Source: Gammaproteobacteria bacterium
GTDB taxonomy: Bacteria; Pseudomonadota; Gammaproteobacteria; UBA4575
NCBI GenBank assembly: GCA_026706595.1
Contig: JAPOYL010000013.1
Location: forward strand, 75,705-139,704
Length of the DNA stretch: 64,000 nt
Direction of reading: 5' to 3'
Shown here: piece after piece, positions 2,814 to 22,990 of the stretch
Position numbering within the stretch: the first letter of the stretch is position 1
Layout: every line of letters begins with the position of its first letter
Made by a program: the position numbers and the translations under genes
Notes under the pieces: model-generated
What the model saw: only the letters and a program-made list of their open reading frames with translations
The model's database searches: none
What the model was told of the DNA's origin: nothing

Positions 2814-4895
2814 TCAATGCTCAATGGCTTTCATGCTTAACCTGACGCGGCCCTGCTTGTCAATTTCAAGCACTTTCACCTTAATGATATCTCCCTCCGA
2901 GAGTTCATCCGCCACGCTGTCGACTCGCTCATGTGAGATTTGTGAGATATGAACAAGTCCATCCTTGCCTGGCAGCACGCTTACGAAGGCTCCGAAATCC
3001 ATGATCTTCACGACTTTCCCTTCATAGATCTTACCGACTTCCACATCAGCCGTGATCTCTTCGATTCGGCGCTTGGCATCGTCTCCTGCAGCCTTATCCA
3101 CGGACGCGATGCGAACGACCCCGTCGTCGTCGATGTCTATGGTGGTCCCCGTCTCTTCTGTCAGTGCACGTATGGTTGCACCGCCCTTGCCGATTACGTC
3201 GCGTATCTTGTCGGGGTTGATTTTGAGAACTGTAAACCTCGGCGCATGCTCGGACATCTCCTCGCGTGGGGCCGGGATGACAGCATTCATTTCCCCGAGA
3301 ATATGTGACAACCCTTCACAGGCCTGCTTGATCGCAATCTCCATAATCTCCCGCGTAATGCCTTCAATTTTGATGTCCATTTGCAGTGCAGTGATGCCCT
3401 GCTCGGTTCCTGCCACCTTGAAATCCATGTCGCCCAGGTGATCCTCATCACCCAGGATATCCGTGAGAACTGCAAAGCTTTCGCCCTCCTTGATCAACCC
3501 CATGGCGATTCCTGCAACCGGTGCCTTGATGGGGACGCCCGAATCCATCAGGGAGAGGCTGGTACCACAAACGCTGGCCATGGAGCTGGAACCATTCGAT
3601 TCCGTAATTTCAGACACCACCCGGATCACATAAGGAAAGTCATCTTCACCTGGAACCACAGCCCGTATGCCACGCTTGGCCAGTTTCCCATGCCCGATCT
3701 CGCGGCGTTTTGGCGATCCGACCATGCCCGTTTCCCCAACACAGTAAGGTGGGAAATTATAGTGCAGCATGAAGTTGTCCTTGAACTCGCCCTCTATGGC
3801 ATCAATTATCTGTGCATCCCGACCTGTGCCCAGGGTCGTCGCGACCAGGGCCTGGGTTTCTCCACGCGTGAAAAGGGCGCTGCCGTGAACCCGGGGCAAA
3901 ATCCCTACCCGGACACCAATAGGACGAACCGTGCTTCGGTCCCGTCCATCAATGCGTGGCTCACCTGCCAAAATCCGGGTGCGCACGATCTCTTTCTCAA
4001 GCTTGCTGAAGGCCCCAAGAATCTCCGCTTCGCTCGATCCCTCCGCTTCGCCCGACAGGGAGTCCAGCAGTTGACTGCGAATTTCGCCAACCTTGTTCTG
4101 GCGTTCGACCTTTTCAGCAATTTGGTACGCCTCACCGAGACTCTCGCGACACTGGTTATTGACCTGGTCAGCCAGGGATTCATCGGCGTGCGGAGCTTGC
4201 CAGTCCCATGCCGACTTGCCGGCTTCCTGGGCAAACTCTTTGATTGCCTGAATGGCTTTCTGAAGCTGTTCATGGCCAAACATCACCGCGCCCAGCATCG
4301 TTTCCTGCGGGAGGATGTCAGCTTCGGACTCCACCATCAAAACTGCACTCTCCGTACCGGCCACAACCAGGTCCAGGCTGGAATTTTTCAACTGATAGTT
4401 GTCCGGGTTGAGTACATAGTTGCCATCCACGTAACCCACCCTGGCTGCACCTATGGTCCCGTTGAAGGGGATCCCGGATATTGCCAGTGCAGCAGAGGCG
4501 CCGAGCAGGGCCGGCACGTCCGGGTCGATGGCCGTGTTCATGGACACCACCGTAGCGATGATTTGCACTTCGTTGAGAAACCCTTTGGGGAACATCGGTC
4601 GAAGTGGACGGTCAATGAGCCGCGAGGTCAGCGTCTCCTTTTCAGACGGACGGCCTTCCCGCTTGAAGAAACCGCCGGGTATCTTTCCTGCCGCGTACGT
4701 CTTTTCCTGATAATTGATGGTCAGCGGGAAAAAATCCCGGTTAGGGTCAGGCTCTCTCCTGGCTACAGCTGTAACAAGAACCGATGTCTCGCCCATGTCA
4801 ACAAGCACGGCACCATCTGCCTGGCGCGCAATTTCACCAGTCTCCAGTGTGACTTGGTGATCCCCATATGAAAACGACTTTGTAACTTTACTCAC
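2814..4895 (-). CDS. pnp: Polynucleotide phosphorylase
   Basis: 693 aa. Two RNase PH-like halves, a KH region and a C-terminal S1 domain ([13 protein letters not shown]). Lies downstream of rpsO as in E. coli. Confidence 0.97.
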
Positions 4896-5472: not shown

Positions 5473-6381
5473 TCAGCTCAGGCATTTGGAAACGATTCGC
5501 CCATCCTCCAGAACGGTTCCCACTCCATAAAAGCGGTTGTTCACATCATAAATCCTGACAATTTCTCCGGGCGGAGACTCATGCATTTGGACTGGACGGC
5601 CATAGCGGGCCTCTTCCATCATGTACTCATCAAATGCCAGTGCAGGCCAGGACTGCAGGGCAGCATCGACGGGCAGCAACAGCCTGTCCAGTGAAGAAAA
5701 ATCCGTATCGGCGGATTTCTCCAGCTTTTCCAGCGTGTGCATCACGGGGTCCACAAATGGGCCAAGGCCCGTGCGCCTCAATTCGACCACGTAAGCACCA
5801 CAACCCAGAGCTTTGCCCAAGTCCTCGACCAGCGTCCGGACATAGGTTCCCTTTGAACAGTGCACGTCAGCATACAAGAGGGCATCTTCCCTTCGAGTGA
5901 CTTCCAGCCTGTATACCTTGACTGCTCTCGGAGGGCGTGTGACCTCGACGCCCTGCCTGGCCAGCCGGTATAACCGGGTCCCCTGATGCTTCAGGGCAGA
6001 ATACATGGGCGGGACCTGCTCAATATCACCGGTCAGGCACTGGGTGGCCTGCCGGACCTGCTCATCGGTCACCGTGGAGGCATCCTGTTCACGGGTGATA
6101 CGACCGTCCGCATCGCCCGTATCAGTCGTTGCACCCAGCCTCAGCAGCACCTTGTAGTGCTTGTCCGAAGTCAACAGAAAGTCAGAAATTTTTGTGGCTC
6201 GCCCAAAGCAGACCGTCAACAGGCCCGTGGCAAGTGGGTCCAGGCTTCCGGTATGGCCGGCCTTGTCCGCATTGAAGAGCCTTTTCGCCTTTTGCAATGC
6301 CCGGTTGGAAGTCATGCCGGATGGCTTGTCCAGGAGCAGCAAGCCGTTGAGTGTGCGCCCCTTGCGCCTGTGCCTGGGCAT
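5473..6381 (-). CDS. truB: tRNA pseudouridine(55) synthase
   Basis: 302 aa. Catalytic Asp motif GHTGSLDPLATGLL. Position between rbfA and rpsO. Confidence 0.95.
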   Translation of the reverse strand: MPRHRRKGRTLNGLLLLDKPSGMTSNRALQKAKRLFNADKAGHTGSLDPLATGLLTVCFGRATKISDFLLTSDKHYKVLLRLGATTDTGDADGRITREQDASTVTDEQVRQATQCLTGDIEQVPPMYSALKHQGTRLYRLARQGVEVTRPPRAVKVYRLEVTRREDALLYADVHCSKGTYVRTLVEDLGKALGCGAYVVELRRTGLGPFVDPVMHTLEKLEKSADTDFSSLDRLLLPVDAALQSWPALAFDEYMMEEARYGRPVQMHESPPGEIVRIYDVNNRFYGVGTVLEDGRIVSKCLS

Positions 6382-14446: not shown

Positions 14447-15215
14447 GGTCGGTGTCCCTCATGATTTTCCCCCAGACTGTGCATCCAGCATCCGCATCTT
14501 AATCAAATTCCTCTTTACCCGGCCATATCCACTATTCTCCACGGCCAAGCCCCGTGTACGCGCAAACTCACCTGTACATCCGCGGGCGATTATAGCCGTA
14601 TACTTTGTAATATTGTATCAAAAAGGCCGCAGCCCTACGTGCAGACCTGCATCCTGGTGATGCGAGTAGCAGGCTCGAAACTCTCCGGGATTTTCATTGT
14701 AATGATCCTCAATATCTAGTCTGTACCAGACAGGGCCTGTCGACCTGTGCCAGCCCAGCCCCCGGGCTACTTGTGTTTCATCCCACTGCCTGTAATGAAG
14801 TGCTTGGGGTTGGACACCCTGTCAAGATCTACAAACCAGGAAACCCCTTGACCCGGCCCGTCAGGGAAACAGCACAGTGTGTTTCAGGGCCGTACTCGCT
14901 GCCTGACTTCTCGCTATGGCCAAGCCGGTAAAGAGACTTTGTATGTCTGCTGTAAATGATCCCCAGTGACACTGATCACGACTCTCTTTCGTATAAATTC
15001 ATAAAATTTTCACGATATTTTCTGAATACATCACACCAAGATCATAAAGGCCTTGCTACGATGCGCACGGTCACATCAGCATCAACTTTCGCTATGACTT
15101 CAAGGCAGAACTCTAACGCGATCTTCCCATTTTCCCAATCGCGGATCAGCCTAAGCGGCCCTCTCTGGCCACTTACATCTAGTGTGACGGGGTGATTCGT
15201 AATCAGGTGCCGGTT

Positions 15216-16236
15216 ATGGAGAAGAAAAGAGTCATCGTCATTGGTGGAGGAGCAGCAGGACTGAGCGCCACGTGGACACTCAAGAAGCGTGGCCTCGACC
15301 CCATCCTGTTCGAGGCCAGCGACCGCGTGGGTGGACGCCTGGGCGGTGACCGGGTGGACGGTTTCTGTGTGGACGAAGGCGCGGACTTCTTCTGCTCCTC
15401 GTACGACGCGGCCTTTCGCATGTGCGAGGAACTGGGATTGCGTCTGGTTCGCTCGAAGATGAAGCTGGGCTGGTACAGAAACGGCCGGTGGGCTCTGTCG
15501 ACGCCATTCGAGTCTGTGAGTGCCCTCGTCCGAGACCTGCCAGCGCTCAAGACGCTAGGGTTTCTCTCGCCCCGGGACGTCGGGCCGATGCTGAAACTGG
15601 TCAGCGGGATCAGCCGGCAGTCGAAATACCTGAATTTCTCCAGCGAGTGCAGGATCGCCGAGATCGACAAAGGGGAGACATTCGGCGATTATCTGAAGCG
15701 GATCGGCGTGTCCGACTACCTGAAGACCACTCTGGCCGGATTTCTTGAGATGACCATGGGCAATATCGACGACGCCAGCGAAGCGTACATGCGAACCTAT
15801 CTGTTGGAAATGATCTTGAAGGCGGACCAGATCTATGTGCCGGAAAAGGGTGCAGGTGCCCTGTCCCACGCGCTGGCCGGTGCATGCGGAGATGCCATTC
15901 GTGTTTCACACCCTGTCCACCGCGTGGATATCCAGGACGGTGCTGTGGTGAGAGTAGTCACAAACGATGGTCTGATAGAGGCAGACGCTGTTATCTGTGC
16001 CCTTCCCGCCACAAGGGTGGCGGACATCATCCCCGGCCTGCCACCCGGGGTCCGCCGCACACTCGGCAGGATCATCTACTCGCACGGGTGCCGGGTGGTA
16101 ATTGGCCTGGATCATGCGCCCCTTCCCCCTGGTTGGAATGGCGCGTTGTACCCCGAAGACGAGACACCGGTGCTGCTGGACCGGTCCATCAATCTTCCAG
16201 CCATCGCACCACAAGGCAAGAGCACACTCGACCTGC
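15216..16236 (+). pseudogene. FAD-dependent oxidoreductase (amine oxidase / protoporphyrinogen oxidase-like), N-terminal fragment cut by the IS
   Basis: Dinucleotide-binding fold VIVIGGGAAGLSATWTL..FEASDRVGGRL. The frame runs into the IS inverted repeat and stops at 16239-16241. It continues in frame at 18822 once the IS and one TSD copy are removed. Confidence 0.85.
16229..16236. repeat. Target-site duplication, left copy (CGACCTGC)
   Basis: The identical 8-mer lies directly outside both inverted repeats (second copy at 18814-18821). Confidence 0.9.
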
Positions 16237-16257
16237 GGTAGTGTCTCAGTTTGAAAT
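16237..16257. repeat. Terminal inverted repeat (transposase-proximal end)
   Basis: GGTAGTGTCTCAGTTTGAAAT. The exact reverse complement lies at 18793-18813. The transposase stop codon (16246-16248) lies inside it. Confidence 0.92.
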
Positions 16258-17124
16258 GCGTTTCTTGTAAGGCCCGCGCTTTTTGGGCGGCGGGTTCTTC
16301 GCATCGATCAGGTCTATGATGAAGTCTACATCGTGTAGCGTGTCTGTCAAACCGGCTTGCATGGCCGGGGTGACTTTCAGGCTCTTGTGGATGCGGCAGA
16401 AGTTGTAGTGTACGAAGTACAGGGACAACTGGTGGATGTGGTTCTCGATTCTCTTGCTGAACGCATTGGTCAGGCGGGTGAACCGTCTCATGCTCATACG
16501 CATGGTCAGGTTGTGGCGCTCTACATGGCTGGTGGATACGTGCTCCCTGTCGGGATTGCCCGTGATCTTGCGCTTGCGTGCGCCGTTGCACTTCGGCGGG
16601 CTGTAACGATGCTCCTGTTCAGGTGAAGGGCCGTACAGCTTGACCAGTTGCGCGTAGTCCACGTCCGCGCCAAAGGCATCTTCCATCGCTTCCAGATAGG
16701 CCCTGTGGCCGTCCGTGGTGAGCTGCACCCGGTTAGCTAGCCTGGACTTCACATCGTCCAGGAACTCAAGGGCATAGCCACTGTCACGCCCGCCAACCAG
16801 GTAAGAGACCATCAGCTTGGATTCGGGGTCCAGTGCCGTCCAGGTCCATACGTCCCCGGCATCTTTAGGGGCCGCTACAGCCAGGGGCACGTTCTTCTGC
16901 TTGGCGTAGCAGAACGACCATATTTCATCGCACTGGATGCGGCGGGCGTTCACGTCCCGAACCGCCTTGTCGTGGAACTCTGCACAGGCTTCGCCTGCAT
17001 CCACAAGCAGCTTGGTTACGGTGTTGATGGATACGCCGACCGTGCGGCTGATAGAGCGCATGGATGAACCCTCGACCAGAAGGTTCAGAACCATTTTTCG
17101 CTTGTCTCTGGAAAGTCTGTTCAT
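16246..17124 (-). CDS. IS1-family transposase (single ORF, no insA/insB frameshift)
   Basis: HTH ([16 protein letters not shown]). DDE-region motifs [43 protein letters not shown] at 17124 ([10 protein letters not shown]). The track ORF starts at a TTG at 17160. Confidence 0.9.
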
Positions 17125-17174
17125 GGTTCTAATACTAACCTGAACTAGACTAAATAGCAAGCATTTAGTTCAGT

Positions 17175-18480
17175 TTATGCTACCATCTTACGCTTGATCC
17201 AGCCCTTATCTGTCAGACATGCAAGCAAGTATTCCTGCGACCGCGCACCTTTCACTGAGTTGCAGTGGCCGCATAGCAACTGGAGATTACTGATATGATC
17301 CGTGCCGCCCTTCGCCTTTGGAATGATGTGGTCCACGTGGAAGTGCCGCAGCTCGAAGTGTGTTTCACACCCGTTGCAGTACCCGCCCTGTTCGCCATAC
17401 AGATAGCGCTTATTGCGGGCATCGTTATAACGAATCACTTTGCCCAAGTCCGTGCGCTCCGGCACGTCCGTGCGGTGTACGCCTTCATAAAATGCGCCTA
17501 TCTCGTTCTCCATGCGGTCCTGCACCAGATCGGCTGCCTTGGGTGAGATGTCGATCCCTACCCACTCCCTGTGCTCGATTTCGGCTGCTATGCAGGCTGT
17601 AGCGCAGCCGCAGAACGGATCTAAAACCACGTCTCCCTCATGACTGGATGCCTTGATGATGCGCTGTAGCAACGCCAAAGGCTTCTGGGTGGGATAGCCC
17701 GTGATCTCCGAGCGGTTGCCCGGAAACCAGCCCTGGGACGTGTACAGGTGACTGATATCCATCCAGGTATCGTGCAGTGGCACTCCCGGACTTTCGTCCA
17801 GGTACTGGCGTTTGATCTTGCCGTTCTTCTTTCGGGTTTGATATTTGCGCCCATGCTCGTCCTCGTGACGGAACCATTTGAGATACTTTTCCGAGTAGGG
17901 CAGGTATTGGATGTTGTAGGTGTGCTTCTTGTAGCTGGCTGCATAGGCCAGCAGGGTTTCATGCGCCTTGCCCGGCTTGTACTTGGCGATTGCGCCGGAT
18001 CGGGAACCGATGAACCAGGCCACCTCAGCTACGAAGTTCTTATACCCGAAAATACAGTCCAGCAAGGCTTTCAGATAGTGGCCTGCGGTCGGATCGCAGT
18101 GCAGCCAGATTGTGCCCGTAGGCTTGAGAATCCGGCGCATTTCCATGAGCCTGACCGCCATGGAGATCAGGTAACTCATCATCCCATCGCTATGGACTTC
18201 GCGGGTGCCTTGCAGCAGGGCATACAGGCCGGGGTGCTCGTGCTTGATCTCCCCGTGCCAGGCCAGGTTCACATCATCCAGCGTCCACGTATCCTTGAAC
18301 CACGCGCCCGCAGCCTTGCTGCCGATGGGTGCCGAATATGTCTTGTTCTTACTGTAAGGGGGGTCCAGGTAGATCAGGTCCACTGAGGCACTGTTCATGC
18401 CCCGCATGATGTCTAGGTTATCGCCCGTCCAGATGGTCTGATTGGCCCAATTTGTCGGGGGGGGGGGGGGTAGAGGTCAT
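17175..18480 (-). CDS. DNA N4/N6-methyltransferase (beta-class) fused to a C-terminal HNH endonuclease; the 5' end is out of frame at a C14 tract
   Basis: DPPY motif (LIYLDPPYSK), then the AdoMet motif VLDPFCGCATACIAAE, then HNH (HVDHIIPKAKGGTDHISNLQLLCGHCNSVKG). The uninterrupted ORF is 17175-18407. The same frame upstream reads TNWANQTIWTGDNLDI. The ATG at 18480 is 1 nt out of frame. Confidence 0.85.
18457..18470. repeat. Homopolymeric tract G14 (C14 on the coding strand)
   Basis: Counted directly: 14 consecutive G. It lies between the ATG at 18480 and the conserved methyltransferase N-terminus. Confidence 0.95.
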
Positions 18481-18490
18481 ATCTGGTAGC

Positions 18491-18712
18491 TTACTGCGAC
18501 CAGCGGGCCTCTGCTGCCTTTTTGGCAATCTGTTTGCGCCGGGCCTTGCTCAGGGACTTGGCGCGGGCCTTGCCGCCCGCTACGCCACTGGCATGTCTGC
18601 CAGGGCACTTTAGTTTGTTTTCAGAAAACTCACCTGTCGCAATTTTGGCAACCGTTGTCGCGCATCCGACTACATCTGCTGGCCGCTTTTCACCGTTAGG
18701 GCCTTTAGGCAT
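18491..18712 (-). CDS. Small basic protein (73 aa), first gene of the IS cargo
   Basis: MPKGPNGEKRPADVVGCATTVAKIATGE.., with a Lys/Arg-rich C-terminus ending KARRKQIAKKAAEARWSQ. AGGAG lies 9 nt upstream of the ATG. The stop is 10 nt before the ATG at 18480. Confidence 0.55.
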   Translation of the reverse strand: MPKGPNGEKRPADVVGCATTVAKIATGEFSENKLKCPGRHASGVAGGKARAKSLSKARRKQIAKKAAEARWSQ

Positions 18713-18792
18713 GGGGGTTTCGCTCCTGTGTGTGTCAACCCTTATACTACACTAAACTGTACAACTGGTTTGGAAATTCGATACAAGGTGAG

Positions 18793-18813
18793 ATTTCAAA
18801 CTGAGACACTACC
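18793..18813. repeat. Terminal inverted repeat (cargo-proximal end)
   Basis: ATTTCAAACTGAGACACTACC, the exact reverse complement of 16237-16257. Confidence 0.92.
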
Positions 18814-18821
18814 CGACCTGC
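18814..18821. repeat. Target-site duplication, right copy (CGACCTGC)
   Basis: Identical to 16229-16236. Confidence 0.9.
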
Positions 18822-19171
18822 TGGTCGGTCGCGATCGTGCGAAGGAACTGTTTCCGTTGGACGATGAGGAGATCAAGTGCCGGATGCTTGCCGATGCACG
18901 ACGCAACCCCCCTCCCGGCTCCGCACTCCCCGGCGACGACGAGGGGCTGTTCACGCGTGTTTACCGCTGGCGGGATGCCGTATGCATGATGCCGCCCGGT
19001 ATGTTCAAGGAGGTCGCACAGATGCGCCATCAACTCAGCGGGACAATCAAAAACCTCTTTCTGGCAGGCGATTACATGCGCGTGCCCAGCGTGAATGGCG
19101 CCTTGGCCAGCGGAGTGATTGCGGCCGACGAGGCGGCGAACATGCTGACAGTCCCTGAGTTCACAGACTAG
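18814..19171 (+). pseudogene. FAD-dependent oxidoreductase, C-terminal fragment
   Basis: Reads ..DLLVGRDRAKELFPL..NLFLAGDYMRVPSVNGALASGVIAADEAA, the C-terminal FAD-binding signature of the amine oxidase/PPOX fold. In frame with 15216-16236 after IS removal. Confidence 0.85.
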
Positions 19172-19327: not shown

Positions 19328-19404
19328 TGGTAGCGGGGGCAGGATTTGAACCTGCGACCTTCGGGTTATGAGCCCGACGAGCTGCCAGACTGCTCCACCC
19401 CGCA
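19328..19404 (-). tRNA. Initiator tRNA-fMet (anticodon CAT)
   Basis: 77 nt ending CCA. Near-identical to E. coli tRNA-fMet by eye. Three G-C pairs close the anticodon stem (GGG-CUCAUAA-CCC). Positions 1:72 are unpaired (U-U). Confidence 0.9.
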
Positions 19405-19542: not shown

Positions 19543-19572
19543 TCTGTAGCGGGGGGCAGGATTTGGACCCGC
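19543..19572. repeat. Partial third copy of the tRNA-fMet 3' end (att-like fragment)
   Basis: TCTGTAGCGGGGGGCAGGATTTGGACCCGC versus TCTGGTAGCGGGGGCAGGATTTGAACCTGC at 19325-19354. It lies exactly where the GC-rich block begins. Confidence 0.7.
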
Positions 19573-19603: not shown

Positions 19604-22340
19604 TCAGAACCGCAGGCGGAGGTCGAGCCTCAGTTCGTGCTCGGGCGCGGCCGCGTCACTCTCGACGCGCGCGCCGGCGAACTCGACGCCTAGCGGCATG
19701 GGCCACGCCTCAAACCGGGTGCCGAGACGGAGCCGTCGGCTCCCCTCACCGGCCAGCCTGATTTCTGCGAACGGTGTCAGAAGCCCGTGCGGCGCCATGC
19801 CCAGGCCGTAGCCGAGGTGCGCATCCAGCGAGGCGGTCTCGCCGTGCGAGGTCCCGCCGGGCTGAGGCAACTCGTCCCGCCACAGCGCCTTCGCGCCGCC
19901 CGTGCCCACGCCCCAGCGCGGGCTCAGCGCCAGCGACAGACCCCTCCCGTGCGCCCCGGGGTCCAGCCGCATCGTGAGGCTGAGGCCGCGCTCCTCCGCG
20001 CCGTCCTCCGAGTGCGCCACGAGCCATCGCCCGCGTGCCTCCACCTGAAGACGGCGCGTCGTGTAGCGCAACCCGCCCGCCACCTCGAGGCCAGTCCCCA
20101 CAAGTCCATCACCCCCGTCGCGCCGCGCCGCCGTCTCGACGAACGGCGTGAGCGCCGCGTCCTCGTCCAGTTCAATGCGCCTGGAAGCCTCCAGTCCCAG
20201 GCGCGTCCGCCAGCTGTCGGCGGTCAGCCCGTCCAGGTAGTCCGGGCCGCCATCGGTCTCCAGCCGCGCGAGGCTCGCCTCCGCGCGCAGCGACAGGTCG
20301 CGACCTGCGCGCGCGTGAAGCGCGTGGCGCAGCCCCACCGATCCCATCCGCATCGACAGGTCGCTCGTCTCGCGCGCGCCGCCGATCAGCCGGTGCTCTG
20401 CCTTGCCGCGCCCGGCACCGAGCATGCCGTGCAGCTCCAGGCCGTCGGACACCGTCCAGCGCCCGTAGGGGTAGAGCGCGGTCAGCGTCGTCTCCAGCCG
20501 GCCCTGTCCCGAGCCCCCGGAGTCGCCGCCGTCAAAGCTGTAATCCGCCTCGCCGGTACCGTGGCTCAGCGCGAGGCCCGCCACCCACGCACCGGCCCGC
20601 GCATCCACCCCCAGCCAGCCCGTGCGCAGATCGCCCTCGTAGCGCATGCCCGGCTCCGGACGGCCCGAGAAGCTCCCCAGGTCGCCCCGGCCCCACACCG
20701 ACCAGCGCGTCGCCGAAGGCACCTCCGCACCTTCAGCCACGCCCAGCGTCAGCGAGAAGGCGCTCGCGGCCAGCCACTCTGCCGCGCCGGCGCCCCGGTT
20801 CTGCGCGACGGGCGCGCAGCCCTCGCGACCGTTGTCGAAGAAGCCGGTCTGTCCGAAGGCGCCGCCCACGCTGCGATGGCCCTGCTCACACGGCCCTTCG
20901 TGCGCAAGGCCGGGGGGGCCGCCCCCCCCCCGCACCGAGCGCCAGCGTCTTGCCGGCCAGCGTCAGCTGGCCCGACGGAACCGAGGCCAAAAACCGCATC
21001 CCGATGTTGTCGAGCGCGCTCGATAGTGCCCCGCGGCCCACCGCCGCAAGCGTGCGCTTCACCGTCTGCCTCAACAGCGCCGCGCTCTCCACCGTCACCA
21101 TCACTGCGTCCGAGGCGCTCAGCCCCCCGGGGTCGGTCACCGTGAGCCGGAACGCCAGCTCGCCCAGCGACTCCGGCGCCGCGAAGGAGGGCGTCGCCGT
21201 GTCCGCCCCCGCGAGCGTCACCGACCCACCCGAGACCTGTGTCCAGGCATAGGCCAGCTCGTCGCCGTCGGGGTCCGAACTCCCCGAGCCGTCCAGCGTC
21301 ACGACCGAGTCCGCAAACACCGTGAGGTCGGCTCCTGCGTCGGCCACCGGCCTCCCCCCTAGGCTGTCGTTGGCCACCGTCTGTGTGAAGCTCGCCACCG
21401 CGTTGCCGGCGAAGTCGCGCAGGCGCACGCCGAGCGCGGCCGGGCGCGTGTAGTGCACCTCGACCGTCTCGCCGCGGGCGACCGGCGCCGCGAGCGTCAG
21501 CGTGACCCTGCGCTGGGTGCGGGAAGTGTCGAGGTCGACCGCTGACGGGTGCACTCCAGCCCCGTCGCCCACCACCACCTCGAACGCCTCGGGCGGGGGC
21601 ACCGAGCCGGGATGGAGCCTCTTGCTGAAGGGGATGGTCAGCGTCGCACCGCTTACCGTCGGCGTGCCCGACACCCGCGGCGGCGGCGACGACTTCGCGT
21701 AGCCTTTGATGGTGAACATTAAAGATACATCATCATTTGTAGGATCATAATCCCACGAACTACCAGCAATATTATAAACCCGAGCTTCAATACCTTGAGA
21801 GATGGACCAACCCGACAAACCTGTTTCGTTAGTTGATCGTGTCAATTCGAAGTTTGAACCACTTTCAGAGCCGCTGGGTGTGTGGTCAATAACTAACCAA
21901 TAGGATGTTTCGGGCTTCAGATCGATACCTGACCCTGAAGCTTTGTAATTGTTATCAGCATTCGCGGTCAGTGAAGCTGGGTTCGTCAACGTGCCCACGA
22001 GAGTGCCAGGATAGTGACGTTGGCTACCATGTCGTAACCTACCAGGAGTGGAATCTTCTACGCTACTGCGGATTTCCACGGTGTGCGGTGCCGGGAGTAC
22101 CTCACGGATCTTAAGGTCTACACTGGTCAGCTTATAGCCCTGAGCATGGCTTCCTGTAACGAACTGCGTTGCAGTGTCTTGAAAGACGCTTGTTCTAGAT
22201 CCGATAGCCTGATTAATGTTGCTCACCAGGCTGACATTCGTTTGCGCCAAAGCCTGGGAAACGCCTGACAGCAAGGCCGGACCGAACAGGCAGGCGGTTG
22301 CGCAGCAGAGGCGCACAGCCCGAAAAGAGAAGGGCCTCAT
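19604..22340 (-). pseudogene. Autotransporter (signal peptide, N-terminal domain, SwmB-like Ig domain, PKD-like domain, C-terminal beta-barrel), split by a frameshift at a G10 tract
   Basis: ORFs 20886-22517 and 19604-20935 overlap at the homopolymer. Signal peptide MRPFSFRAVRLCCATACLFGPALLSGVSQALA from the ATG at 22340. The barrel ends ..LRLDLRLRF. One G fewer gives a single ORF of about 911 aa. Confidence 0.8.
20912..20931. repeat. Adjacent homopolymers G7 (20912-20918) and C10 (20922-20931)
   Basis: Counted directly. On the coding strand this reads G10-C-GG-C7, inside a Gly/Pro stretch (GAGGG / GGGGPPG). Confidence 0.95.
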
Positions 22341-22837
22341 AAGCCTGGCCGCCAGCCGGCGAAGCGGGAAATGAGGAGGAGAGAAGGCCGGGGCTTCCCG
22401 GCTGGACGATGCCCAAATCTGTCGGGCTGGCGCTCTAATTATGAGATTAGGCAGATTCCGTACTGTCAATGGGCACATCAATGAATGTTTCTCCTTGAAA
22501 TCTTGCAGCCCACTCATGACCCAGGCCGTCGACGATCAAAAGCTTTCAGATAGAACGCTGTCAGTTTAACGGCTTATTTATGAATATTGCATGATAGTAT
22601 GAAAAAGTTCATGATTTTCATGTGAATTTCGCAGGGGTTGTACACGATAATGCATCCGTTCGGTGCAGGGGTGGATCTTTCAGCCCGGACATGGCCTCAT
22701 CCGGAACCGGTGTGTTCAATCGCTGGCAAGTCTCAAAAGTCTCTGAACCAGTACAGGAGATTGCCGGGCTTTCGGCACAATCCTCGAATGGGCCGGAAGG
22801 GGGCGACCGATACTCACAAATCGGGAATATCGGTCTC

Positions 22838-22914
22838 GGTGGCAGGGGGCAGGATTTGAACCTGCGACCTTCGGATCATGAACCCGACGAGCTGCCAGAC
22901 TGCTGCACCCCGCA
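22838..22914 (-). pseudogene. tRNA-Met-like copy, probably non-functional
   Basis: Colinear with tRNA-fMet and keeps the CAT anticodon. Only 4 acceptor-stem pairs remain, there is no CCA, position 10:25 is C-C, and the initiator G-C pairs are lost (UCGGG-UUCAUGA-UCCGA). Confidence 0.6.
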
Positions 22915-22990
22915 CCAGGAGGGAACGTGTACTGATTCAGGAACGGTTTTCAAGCCGACGCAACCCAGACGAGGCTTACACACCCCTTGT
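22838..22990. repeat. Direct repeat copy 2 (tRNA-like sequence plus upstream region)
   Basis: Aligns with 19328-19480. The outer end is approximate. Confidence 0.75.

Follow-up and report, generated by a model that had tools for sequence, protein, structure and literature searches.

A 14-nt cytosine tract in the leader of an IS1-borne methyltransferase-HNH gene: a candidate slippage switch that recurs in relatives from several bacterial phyla

Switching of DNA methyltransferases (MTases) by homopolymeric tracts is well known, almost exclusively from chromosomal genes of a few host-adapted pathogens. Such homopolymer switches are typical of Helicobacter and Campylobacter, whereas the classic mod switches of Haemophilus and Neisseria consist of tetra- or pentanucleotide repeats. 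Here, we analyse 64,000 nt (the window, 57.7% G+C) of a gammaproteobacterium of the lineage UBA4575 (assembly GCA_026706595.1, contig JAPOYL010000013.1), in which an insertion sequence (IS) of the IS1 type carries a gene for a predicted MTase fused to an HNH nuclease (MTase-HNH) with a run of 14 C residues at its 5' end. A preliminary description of the window had proposed this run as a candidate phase-variable switch, in analogy to homopolymer slippage in the phasevarions of Neisseria, Haemophilus, and Helicobacter; the analogy holds for Helicobacter, but not for the classic switches of the other two genera. We consider it likely, though with clear reservations, that the C14 run is a hypermutable simple-sequence tract which forms a contingency locus in a dispensable proline leader of the IS1-borne gene.

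The closest described analogue is Cj0031 of Campylobacter jejuni, a phase-variable Type IIG restriction-modification enzyme in which nuclease and MTase likewise share one polypeptide and slippage at an intragenic poly-G/C tract turns expression ON and OFF, with consequences for methylation and phage restriction (Anjum et al. 2016, PMC4889913). The window gene is not a member of that family, however, and its tract is situated in a 5' leader instead of the enzyme body. Cj0031 is an MmeI-like protein with an N-terminal PD-(D/E)XK nuclease and a gamma-class MTase, encoded on the chromosome of a host-adapted pathogen, whereas the window enzyme combines a beta-class MTase with a C-terminal HNH domain, lacks the PD-(D/E)XK-first architecture, is IS-borne, and has relatives in sponge symbionts of several phyla. 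With the phasevarion genes (Type III mod and Type I hsd of Haemophilus, Neisseria, Helicobacter, and Moraxella) it shares a repeat in the open reading frame (ORF) of a beta-class, Mod-like MTase that would toggle expression, and Type III Mod proteins were among its matches in PADLOC and the PDB. In contrast to these genes, it has no Type III architecture and no res partner (the element comprises a 73-aa ORF, MTase-HNH, and the transposase gene only, and thus no mod gene of a Type III restriction-modification system), and its homopolymer lies in the leader peptide of a mobile cargo gene with a fused HNH domain. The solitary beta-class N6-adenine MTases CcrM, M.BceJIV, and M.RsrI provide the best structure and sequence matches, including the order of the DPPY and FxGxG motifs, but lack an HNH domain and a 5' homopolymer and are not cargo of an IS, while all three features are combined in the window gene. 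In a literature search, no description was found of an MTase-HNH passenger of IS elements, of a hypermutable tract in such elements, or of MTase-HNH genes in sponge symbionts. New here is a putative homopolymer switch that is carried by a transposable element and would control a fusion with an HNH nuclease; it occurs in uncultured sponge symbionts belonging to several phyla and recurs within its family.

The tract is located on the minus strand, which encodes all three genes of the element (G14 on the plus strand). As had been described, it consists of 14 nt; it is the only run of this length in the window and the longest homopolymer, followed by a C10 (20922-20931) and a T8. The counts of G runs drop about 4-5 fold with each extra base and stop at 7 apart from the C14 tract, and a 14-nt run arose in 0 of 100 dinucleotide-preserving shuffles of the window. 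On the coding strand, ATG (18480-18478) is followed by ACC TCT A, the C14 tract and GACAAATTGG (longer stretch, GACAAATTGGGCCAATCAGACC). The methylase frame begins at ACA (18455), lies +1 relative to ATG 18480, reads TNWANQTIWTGDNLDIMRGMNSASVDLIYLDPPY, and has a TGA (18479-18477) directly 5' of the tract, so that the preliminary description was right on the displaced start codon and on the stop codon closing the frame. At the tract, the frame is set by length alone and not by sequence. Simulation of tract lengths yielded MTSTPPPPTNWANQ.. with 434 aa for C13 and 435 aa for C16, in line with the single ORF of about 434 aa predicted before, and peptides of 20-22 aa for C12, C14, C15, and C17. The run is thus a repeat of at least about 8 G/C inside an ORF, as required of contingency loci mediated by simple-sequence repeats, and in the frame simulation it depends on the repeat number whether the start codon shares the frame of the catalytic body. 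With 14 C, the leader ORF stops at TAA 18420-18418, 10 nt before the internal ATG 18407, and the only remaining product of the methylase frame is the truncated one from this ATG, as had been stated. Due to the position of the leader ATG, 10 nt past the stop codon of the upstream 73-aa ORF, translational coupling to this small ORF is plausible. A second public assembly of the locus (ENA ERZ23496111, "ROBB21-1_SAMN13943208" scaffold_124, BioSample SAMN13943208; L176) is 100% identical over 9,233 bp and likewise contains 14 C; its label points to the Illumina 2x151 bp sponge metagenomes of Robbins et al. 2021 (PMC8163846). The CarB protein of the uncultured host shows 90-96% identity to database entries that include ones labelled "MAG: Gammaproteobacteria bacterium", and about 75% to Thioalkalivibrio and Ectothiorhodospira.

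MTase and nuclease domains reside in one ORF. Pfam N6_N4_Mtase (3e-38) covers residues 25-312 and Pfam HNH (3.5e-13) residues 360-405 of the 426-aa body, the latter being a C-terminal Cys4 HNH domain, and DPPY (residues 31-34) precedes DPFCGCAT (279-286, FxGxG motif) in the order of beta-class N6A/N4C enzymes. Both motifs are invariant among 56 full-length homologues, and so are the four cysteines of the zinc site and the D-H...N...N residues in the HNH domain. The AlphaFold model (AF2; mean predicted local distance difference test score, pLDDT, 78) resembles the beta-class N6-adenine MTases CcrM (6pbd, E 3e-17), M.BceJIV, M.RsrI, and M.MboIIA in Foldseek, with E-values of 3e-17 to 1e-15 and a TM score of up to 0.82 on the target for residues 1-330. 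The enzyme would accordingly be expected to methylate and to cut DNA.

The start at ATG 18407 appears too far downstream. Homologues begin with M-x(2-30)-NWANQTIWTGDNLDIMRGM, and therefore the true start is located at or before the tract; the same homologues confirm that the conserved N-terminus lies 3' of the tract, as proposed earlier. Use of ATG 18407 removes 16 residues, including four invariant ones (N2, T10, D12, and L14) and four positions that are at least 90% conserved (N5, T7, W9, and N13) in the 56-homologue alignment, and also takes away a strand (residues 7-10) and the larger part of a helix (13-19), which are modelled with pLDDT 88-96. Because of the loss of these conserved residues and confidently modelled elements, the C14 state is very probably a functional OFF state of the methylase. 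This 5' end is easily overlooked: among the 120 closest homologues in the databases, 14 have a gene call that starts at the internal Met (MRGMNS.. or MNS..). Out of six such calls that were checked, four are OFF at a poly-C tract (window, P0008, P0017, and P0020), P0007 has an out-of-frame ATG without a tract, and P0009 is intact. Automatic annotation hides the tract-bearing 5' ends, and as gene callers report 5'-truncated MTase-HNH genes, metagenome annotations systematically misdescribe them.

According to the explanation we favour, slipped-strand mispairing during replication would add or remove C residues, and each change in length would shift ATG 18480 in or out of frame with the catalytic body, while the leader would tolerate any number of prolines. 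Lengths of 13 or 16 C would be ON, and the present 14 C would be OFF, giving the 20-aa peptide and at best, in addition, the N-terminally truncated 410-aa protein, which is probably non-functional. The switch would belong to the mobile element and move with it. We infer that switching is frequent and reversible in the population from which the window derives, and that the OFF state either shuts off a restriction-modification-like activity that is costly or toxic, without losing it for good, or serves bet-hedging of a defence or epigenetic state. Premature termination 1.2 kb upstream may also lower transposase expression by polarity, which would render the whole element phase-variable.

Strong support for a switch comes from relatives. 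A set of 94 related loci (774 kb, denoted by L-numbers) was compiled, 79 from one-genome-per-species contigs, eight from JGI metagenomes, and seven from single-protein look-ups. Many of the 79 are most likely metagenome-assembled genomes (MAGs) of sponge symbionts, given the lineages Candidatus Poriferihabitaceae and Candidatus Poriferisodalis and RHO/COS bin labels which match the sponges of Robbins et al. 2021. Of the eight JGI loci one was informative (L083), and a scan of IMG/VR revealed three full-length relatives, none with a tract; the family is not obviously phage-borne. The 94 loci contain 34 G/C runs of at least 8 nt, 25 of them inside MTase-HNH genes. Fourteen runs are located on the coding strand at most 60 nt 5' of the conserved N-terminal motif, and a fifteenth heads a divergent second MTase-HNH paralogue (L094b) in L094. 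As judged from the assembled sequences, a C8-C17 run thus occupies the position of the window tract in 15 further relatives from at least five phyla, mostly apparent sponge-symbiont MAGs (Table 1). The hosts belong to the Chloroflexota, Rhodothermota, Alpha- and Gammaproteobacteria (Pseudomonadota), Acidobacteriota, and Actinomycetota, and a neighbour-joining tree of the proteins places the tract-bearers at eight or more separate points among relatives that lack a tract. The window element has its three-gene IS1-type architecture in common with L002, L003, L004, L042, L047, L050, L069, L079, L089, L092, and L093, and nearly all of these 11 loci have a run of C6 or more at the tract position. 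The contigs of L092 (2,598 bp) and L093 (2,891 bp) are approximately element-sized.

Judged against the start codon directly upstream of the tract, 12 copies are OFF (window, L003, L031, L037, L042, L050, L069, L071, L089, L093, L094a, and L094b) and four are ON (L047, L083, L091, and L092), a split that is compatible with the 2:1 ratio of a randomised frame. Among the ON copies, L091 reads ATG ACC TTG C14 and encodes MTLPPPPPNF.., with AGGAG 8 nt upstream, and L092 with C13 reads ..GRESGPPPPNGKPNW. The correction needed to restore the frame is -1 in the window, L037, and L050, and +1 in L003, L031, L042, and L071. In L094, the out-of-frame leader of the paralogue L094b (6030-6070; N-terminus TNIENRSLYIHDNL..) consists of ATG ACA ATA G followed by C11.

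Rapid change of the tract is indicated by L003 (OFF) and L004 (ON) of two Dehalococcoidia MAGs, which are 96% identical over 1,631 nt and differ near the tract by an indel of five C, a 1-nt indel upstream of the ATG, and few substitutions. Over 422 shared codons, 33 synonymous and six non-synonymous differences were counted, corresponding to a ratio of non-synonymous to synonymous substitution rates (dN/dS) of 0.05; a copy that had been dead for much of this divergence would not be expected to show such a ratio. For the window and L089, both OFF, a dN/dS of about 0.08 was obtained at saturated dS. Apart from the frame at the tract, nine of the 12 OFF copies show no lesion in the sequence available, and L031 and L037 look full-length in tblastn. 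As to the preliminary proposal of a phase-variable switch, it is supported in part, by the recurrence of the tract at the same position in divergent relatives with lengths of 8-17 in ON and OFF states, by the 5-C difference within the 96%-identical pair, and by purifying selection on OFF copies; additional lesions in several OFF relatives, on the other hand, make decay a real alternative.

A second poly-C site was found in 15 near-identical IS1595-type copies of one Acidobacteriota MAG (CBDEGM01/OZ250158; L038, L040, L041, L043-L046, L048, L059-L063, L066, and L074). The run within GAC CCC CCC TTC (~4085-4100), which encodes the catalytic motif DPPF, was recorded as C7 in nine of the copies and as C8 in four, while C9, C10, and C11 each occur once; many copies are consequently out of frame, and the product of one has DPPPF. 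At this second site of the gene family, tract length thus differs between copies that share a single genome. Internal runs of G9-G10 within the coding region were also seen in L076 (~4400), L070 (~2290), and L010 (~4620), in case of L076 and L070 coinciding with a change of frame between tblastn segments.

Several observations weigh against a switch. OFF copies predominate among the 16 tract-bearers. In-frame stop codons are present in L042 and L050, L083 is truncated, and L079 (C6) contains a further frameshift; owing to these extra lesions, some OFF copies are truly decaying. Leaders of the family are rich in proline even without tracts, e.g., MPPGAP.. and MPRRSPPPEGAGRP.., so that in GC-rich genomes tracts could grow by neutral expansion. 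No clear Shine-Dalgarno sequence precedes the leader ATG 18480 in the window. Both available assemblies of the window element give 14 C, and these probably share reads. No second copy of the exact element was found in the databases, where the MTase cluster consists of the window protein and the assembly of the same locus, and a look-up of the 73-aa ORF for further element copies returned the same contig only. Finally, methylase and nuclease activity are predictions.

The predominance of OFF copies (12 of 16), the extra lesions in L042, L050, L083, and L079, the agreement of the two assemblies on 14 C, and the internal G/C runs that break relatives as well (L076, L070, and the DPPF tract) would suit a plain pseudogene, in which the leader expanded neutrally, a slip inactivated the gene, and its loss from the element is under way, the tract being a hot spot and not a switch. 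We nevertheless regard decay as unlikely. The window gene is otherwise intact, with 426 codons and all catalytic motifs, the comparisons including OFF copies gave dN/dS of 0.05-0.08, and 12:4 is just what free switching predicts. Moreover, ON copies with equally long tracts (C13 and C14) exist, and the insertion of the IS looks recent, since its inverted repeats and target duplication are perfect. A 14-nt run slips back at an appreciable rate, whether selected or not, and an "irreversible" OFF state is thus physically unlikely.

Less likely than decay, and improbable in our opinion, is an error of sequencing or consensus in the G/C homopolymer, the true tract having 13 or 16 C and the gene being intact. 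Long homopolymers are indeed the most error-prone class of sequence, both G/C runs of at least 10 in the window coincide with a frameshift (for the second run, see below), and the second assembly, probably from the same reads, does not amount to independent sequencing. But no other broken genes were observed in the 64 kb, the remainder of which is covered by long, intact ORFs that adjoin each other as in operons, and the data are very probably Illumina 2x151 bp reads, long enough to span the tract. In addition, other short-read assemblies contain OFF copies with tracts of C8-C10 (L089, L093, and L094), where miscalls are rare, and the need for +1 in some loci and -1 in others indicates no one-directional bias. 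Both broken genes, a restriction-modification enzyme and a surface protein, belong to classic classes of contingency loci.

Recoding without a change in DNA, by RNA polymerase slippage or ribosomal frameshifting on CCC, could supply some full-length protein at a low, constitutive level. Programmed frameshifting and transcriptional slippage are known from IS elements, the tract position is conserved, and OFF copies stay under purifying selection. Still, recoding seems very improbable, as the direction of the required shift differs between loci (-1 or +1) and no single programmed event fits, tract length (8-17) is not conserved, and transcriptional slippage is best documented on A/T and not on C/G runs. 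A uniform programmed +1 or -1 frameshift was rejected on the same difference between loci, and read-through from the stop codon of the small ORF was rejected, too: this ORF is in the methylase frame in L042, L079, and L069, but not in the window, L003, L004, and L053.

The preliminary description had placed the gene on an IS, and this is corroborated by inverted repeats, a target duplication, and a transposase gene. The element (16237-18813) is an IS1-type insertion sequence of 2,577 bp with three genes (Table 1). Terminal repeats of the IS1 family have GGnnnTG ends according to ISfinder; the 21-nt inverted repeats of the element begin with GGTAGTG and match these ends, and its 8-bp duplication is within the 8-9 bp of IS1. 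The DDE transposase shows weak but specific similarity to the IS1 family, as suggested by its scores with Pfam DDE_Tnp_IS1 (25.1 bits, cut-off 24.1) and NCBIfam transpos_IS1 (5e-18, 65.8 bits, below the cut-off of 100). In classical IS1, a -1 frameshift joins insA and insB to yield the transposase; here, in contrast, a single ORF of 292/304 aa without an insA-insB' frameshift was found, which fits single-ORF IS1 relatives only. It starts 48 nt past the stop codon of MTase-HNH. The 73-aa ORF has a good Shine-Dalgarno sequence (AGGAG) and the C-terminus ..AAEARWSQ, and obtained no Pfam, NCBIfam, or PADLOC match and only a weak match to a PHROG of unknown function. A scan of the element for sigma-70 promoters and terminators revealed nothing above shuffle expectation. 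In-silico deletion of 16237-18821 restores an oxidoreductase ORF of 464 aa, 81% identical over 454 residues to the uninterrupted P0243; at the locus of P0243 (L095), checked as a possible empty site and for the autotransporter, the oxidoreductase gene is intact, but the neighbourhood is not syntenic with the window.

Table 1. Features of the window element with their positions in the window, and poly-C runs at the corresponding position of related loci.
Feature	Position or loci	Strand	Basis or remark
Target-site duplication CGACCTGC, left copy	16229..16236	.	8-bp direct repeat
Left terminal inverted repeat GGTAGTGTCTCAGTTTGAAAT	16237..16257	.	21 nt
IS1-type DDE transposase, single ORF, 292 aa from ATG 17124	16246..17124	-	Pfam, NCBIfam
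MTase-HNH gene body, 426 codons + stop, otherwise intact	17175..18455	-	Pfam, alignment, AF2, Foldseek
Internal ATG = Met17 of body	18405..18407	-	First and only canonical methylase-frame start at C14; 410-aa product
Present C14 (OFF) product, 20-codon ORF MTSTPPPPDKLGQSDHLDGR	18418..18480	-	Frame simulation
C14 homopolymer	18457..18470	-	Poly-proline leader between start codon and conserved methylase N-terminus; proposed slippage site
ATG start codon of leader	18478..18480	-	In frame with methylase at C13 or C16 only
73-aa ORF, first gene of the element, conserved, function unknown	18491..18712	-	Homologues upstream of tract in related elements
Right terminal inverted repeat	18793..18813	.	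21/21 complementary to left repeat
Target-site duplication CGACCTGC, right copy	18814..18821	.	8-bp direct repeat
Interrupted FAD-dependent amine-oxidase-family gene, 5' part	15192..16236	+	Pfam, excision in silico
Interrupted oxidoreductase gene, 3' part	18822..19171	+	Excision in silico
C6 run	L004, L053, L079		
C8 tract	L047, L083, L093		
C9 tract	L037, L050, L089		
C10 tract	L031, L094a		
C11 tract	L003, L094b		
C12 tract	L069		
C13 tract	L042, L092		
C14 tract	L091 (and window)		
C17 tract	L071		

Homopolymer slippage on an IS-borne MTase-nuclease fusion had been called unusual, but such a fusion is itself not rare: the gene belongs to a large family, with about 8,000 homologues in the databases, on IS1- and IS1595-type elements, often in multiple copies, in sponge-symbiont genomes. 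MTase-HNH is also the passenger of multi-copy units of 2.6-3.7 kb in L020-L023 (3657-6264), L012-L014 (3241-6973), L051/L052, and L094. The transposase of these units is encoded on the opposite strand and possesses the Zn-ribbon and DDE signature of IS1595-family enzymes; since IS1595-type units carry the cargo as well, MTase-HNH was captured by at least two related IS types. Several sponge-symbiont MAGs contain 3 to 17 copies of the cargo each. A C25 run (L023, 6533-6557) is situated approximately 270 nt past the end of one of four identical IS copies in a Candidatus Poriferihabitaceae genome.

The second long G/C run of the window (20912-20931) is found 2.5 kb from the MTase-HNH tract and reads G10 (20922-20931), CGG, and C7 (20912-20918) on the coding strand. 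It is situated exactly at the point where a frameshift splits an autotransporter gene on the minus strand into a passenger ORF with PKD and SWM repeats (20886-22517) and a beta-barrel ORF (19604-20935), which would be fused by G11 or G8, or by C6. These tracts are identical in the second assembly (L176), and the site is a candidate for either a second contingency locus or a second homopolymer miscall. On either side of the autotransporter gene lies a tRNA-Met gene (19328-19404 and 22838-22916). The surroundings of the two share 88% identity over about 150 nt, and part of the 3' end of the tRNA is repeated at 19552-19572. This arrangement possibly goes back to the integration of an islet with the autotransporter gene on board.

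Taken together, it is tempting to speculate, though we hold this wider reading only tentatively, that IS1/IS1595-superfamily elements of sponge symbionts carry a self-contained and self-switching restriction-modification or epigenetic module whose hypermutable poly-C leader emerged or was retained several times in at least five phyla, that this module moves horizontally as a "mobile phasevarion" and may toggle transposition by polarity, and that, considering the autotransporter gene as well, contingency loci are normal in uncultured animal symbionts and not only in pathogens. If the switch is real, the mobile element could arrive in any new host with the stochastic ON/OFF control of a potentially toxic methylase-nuclease already built in, and would create epigenetic heterogeneity within symbiont populations. 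Restriction-modification genes are reported to be enriched and laterally transferred in sponge microbiomes (Robbins et al. 2021, PMC8163846), and such a switch would help to explain their spread and persistence there.

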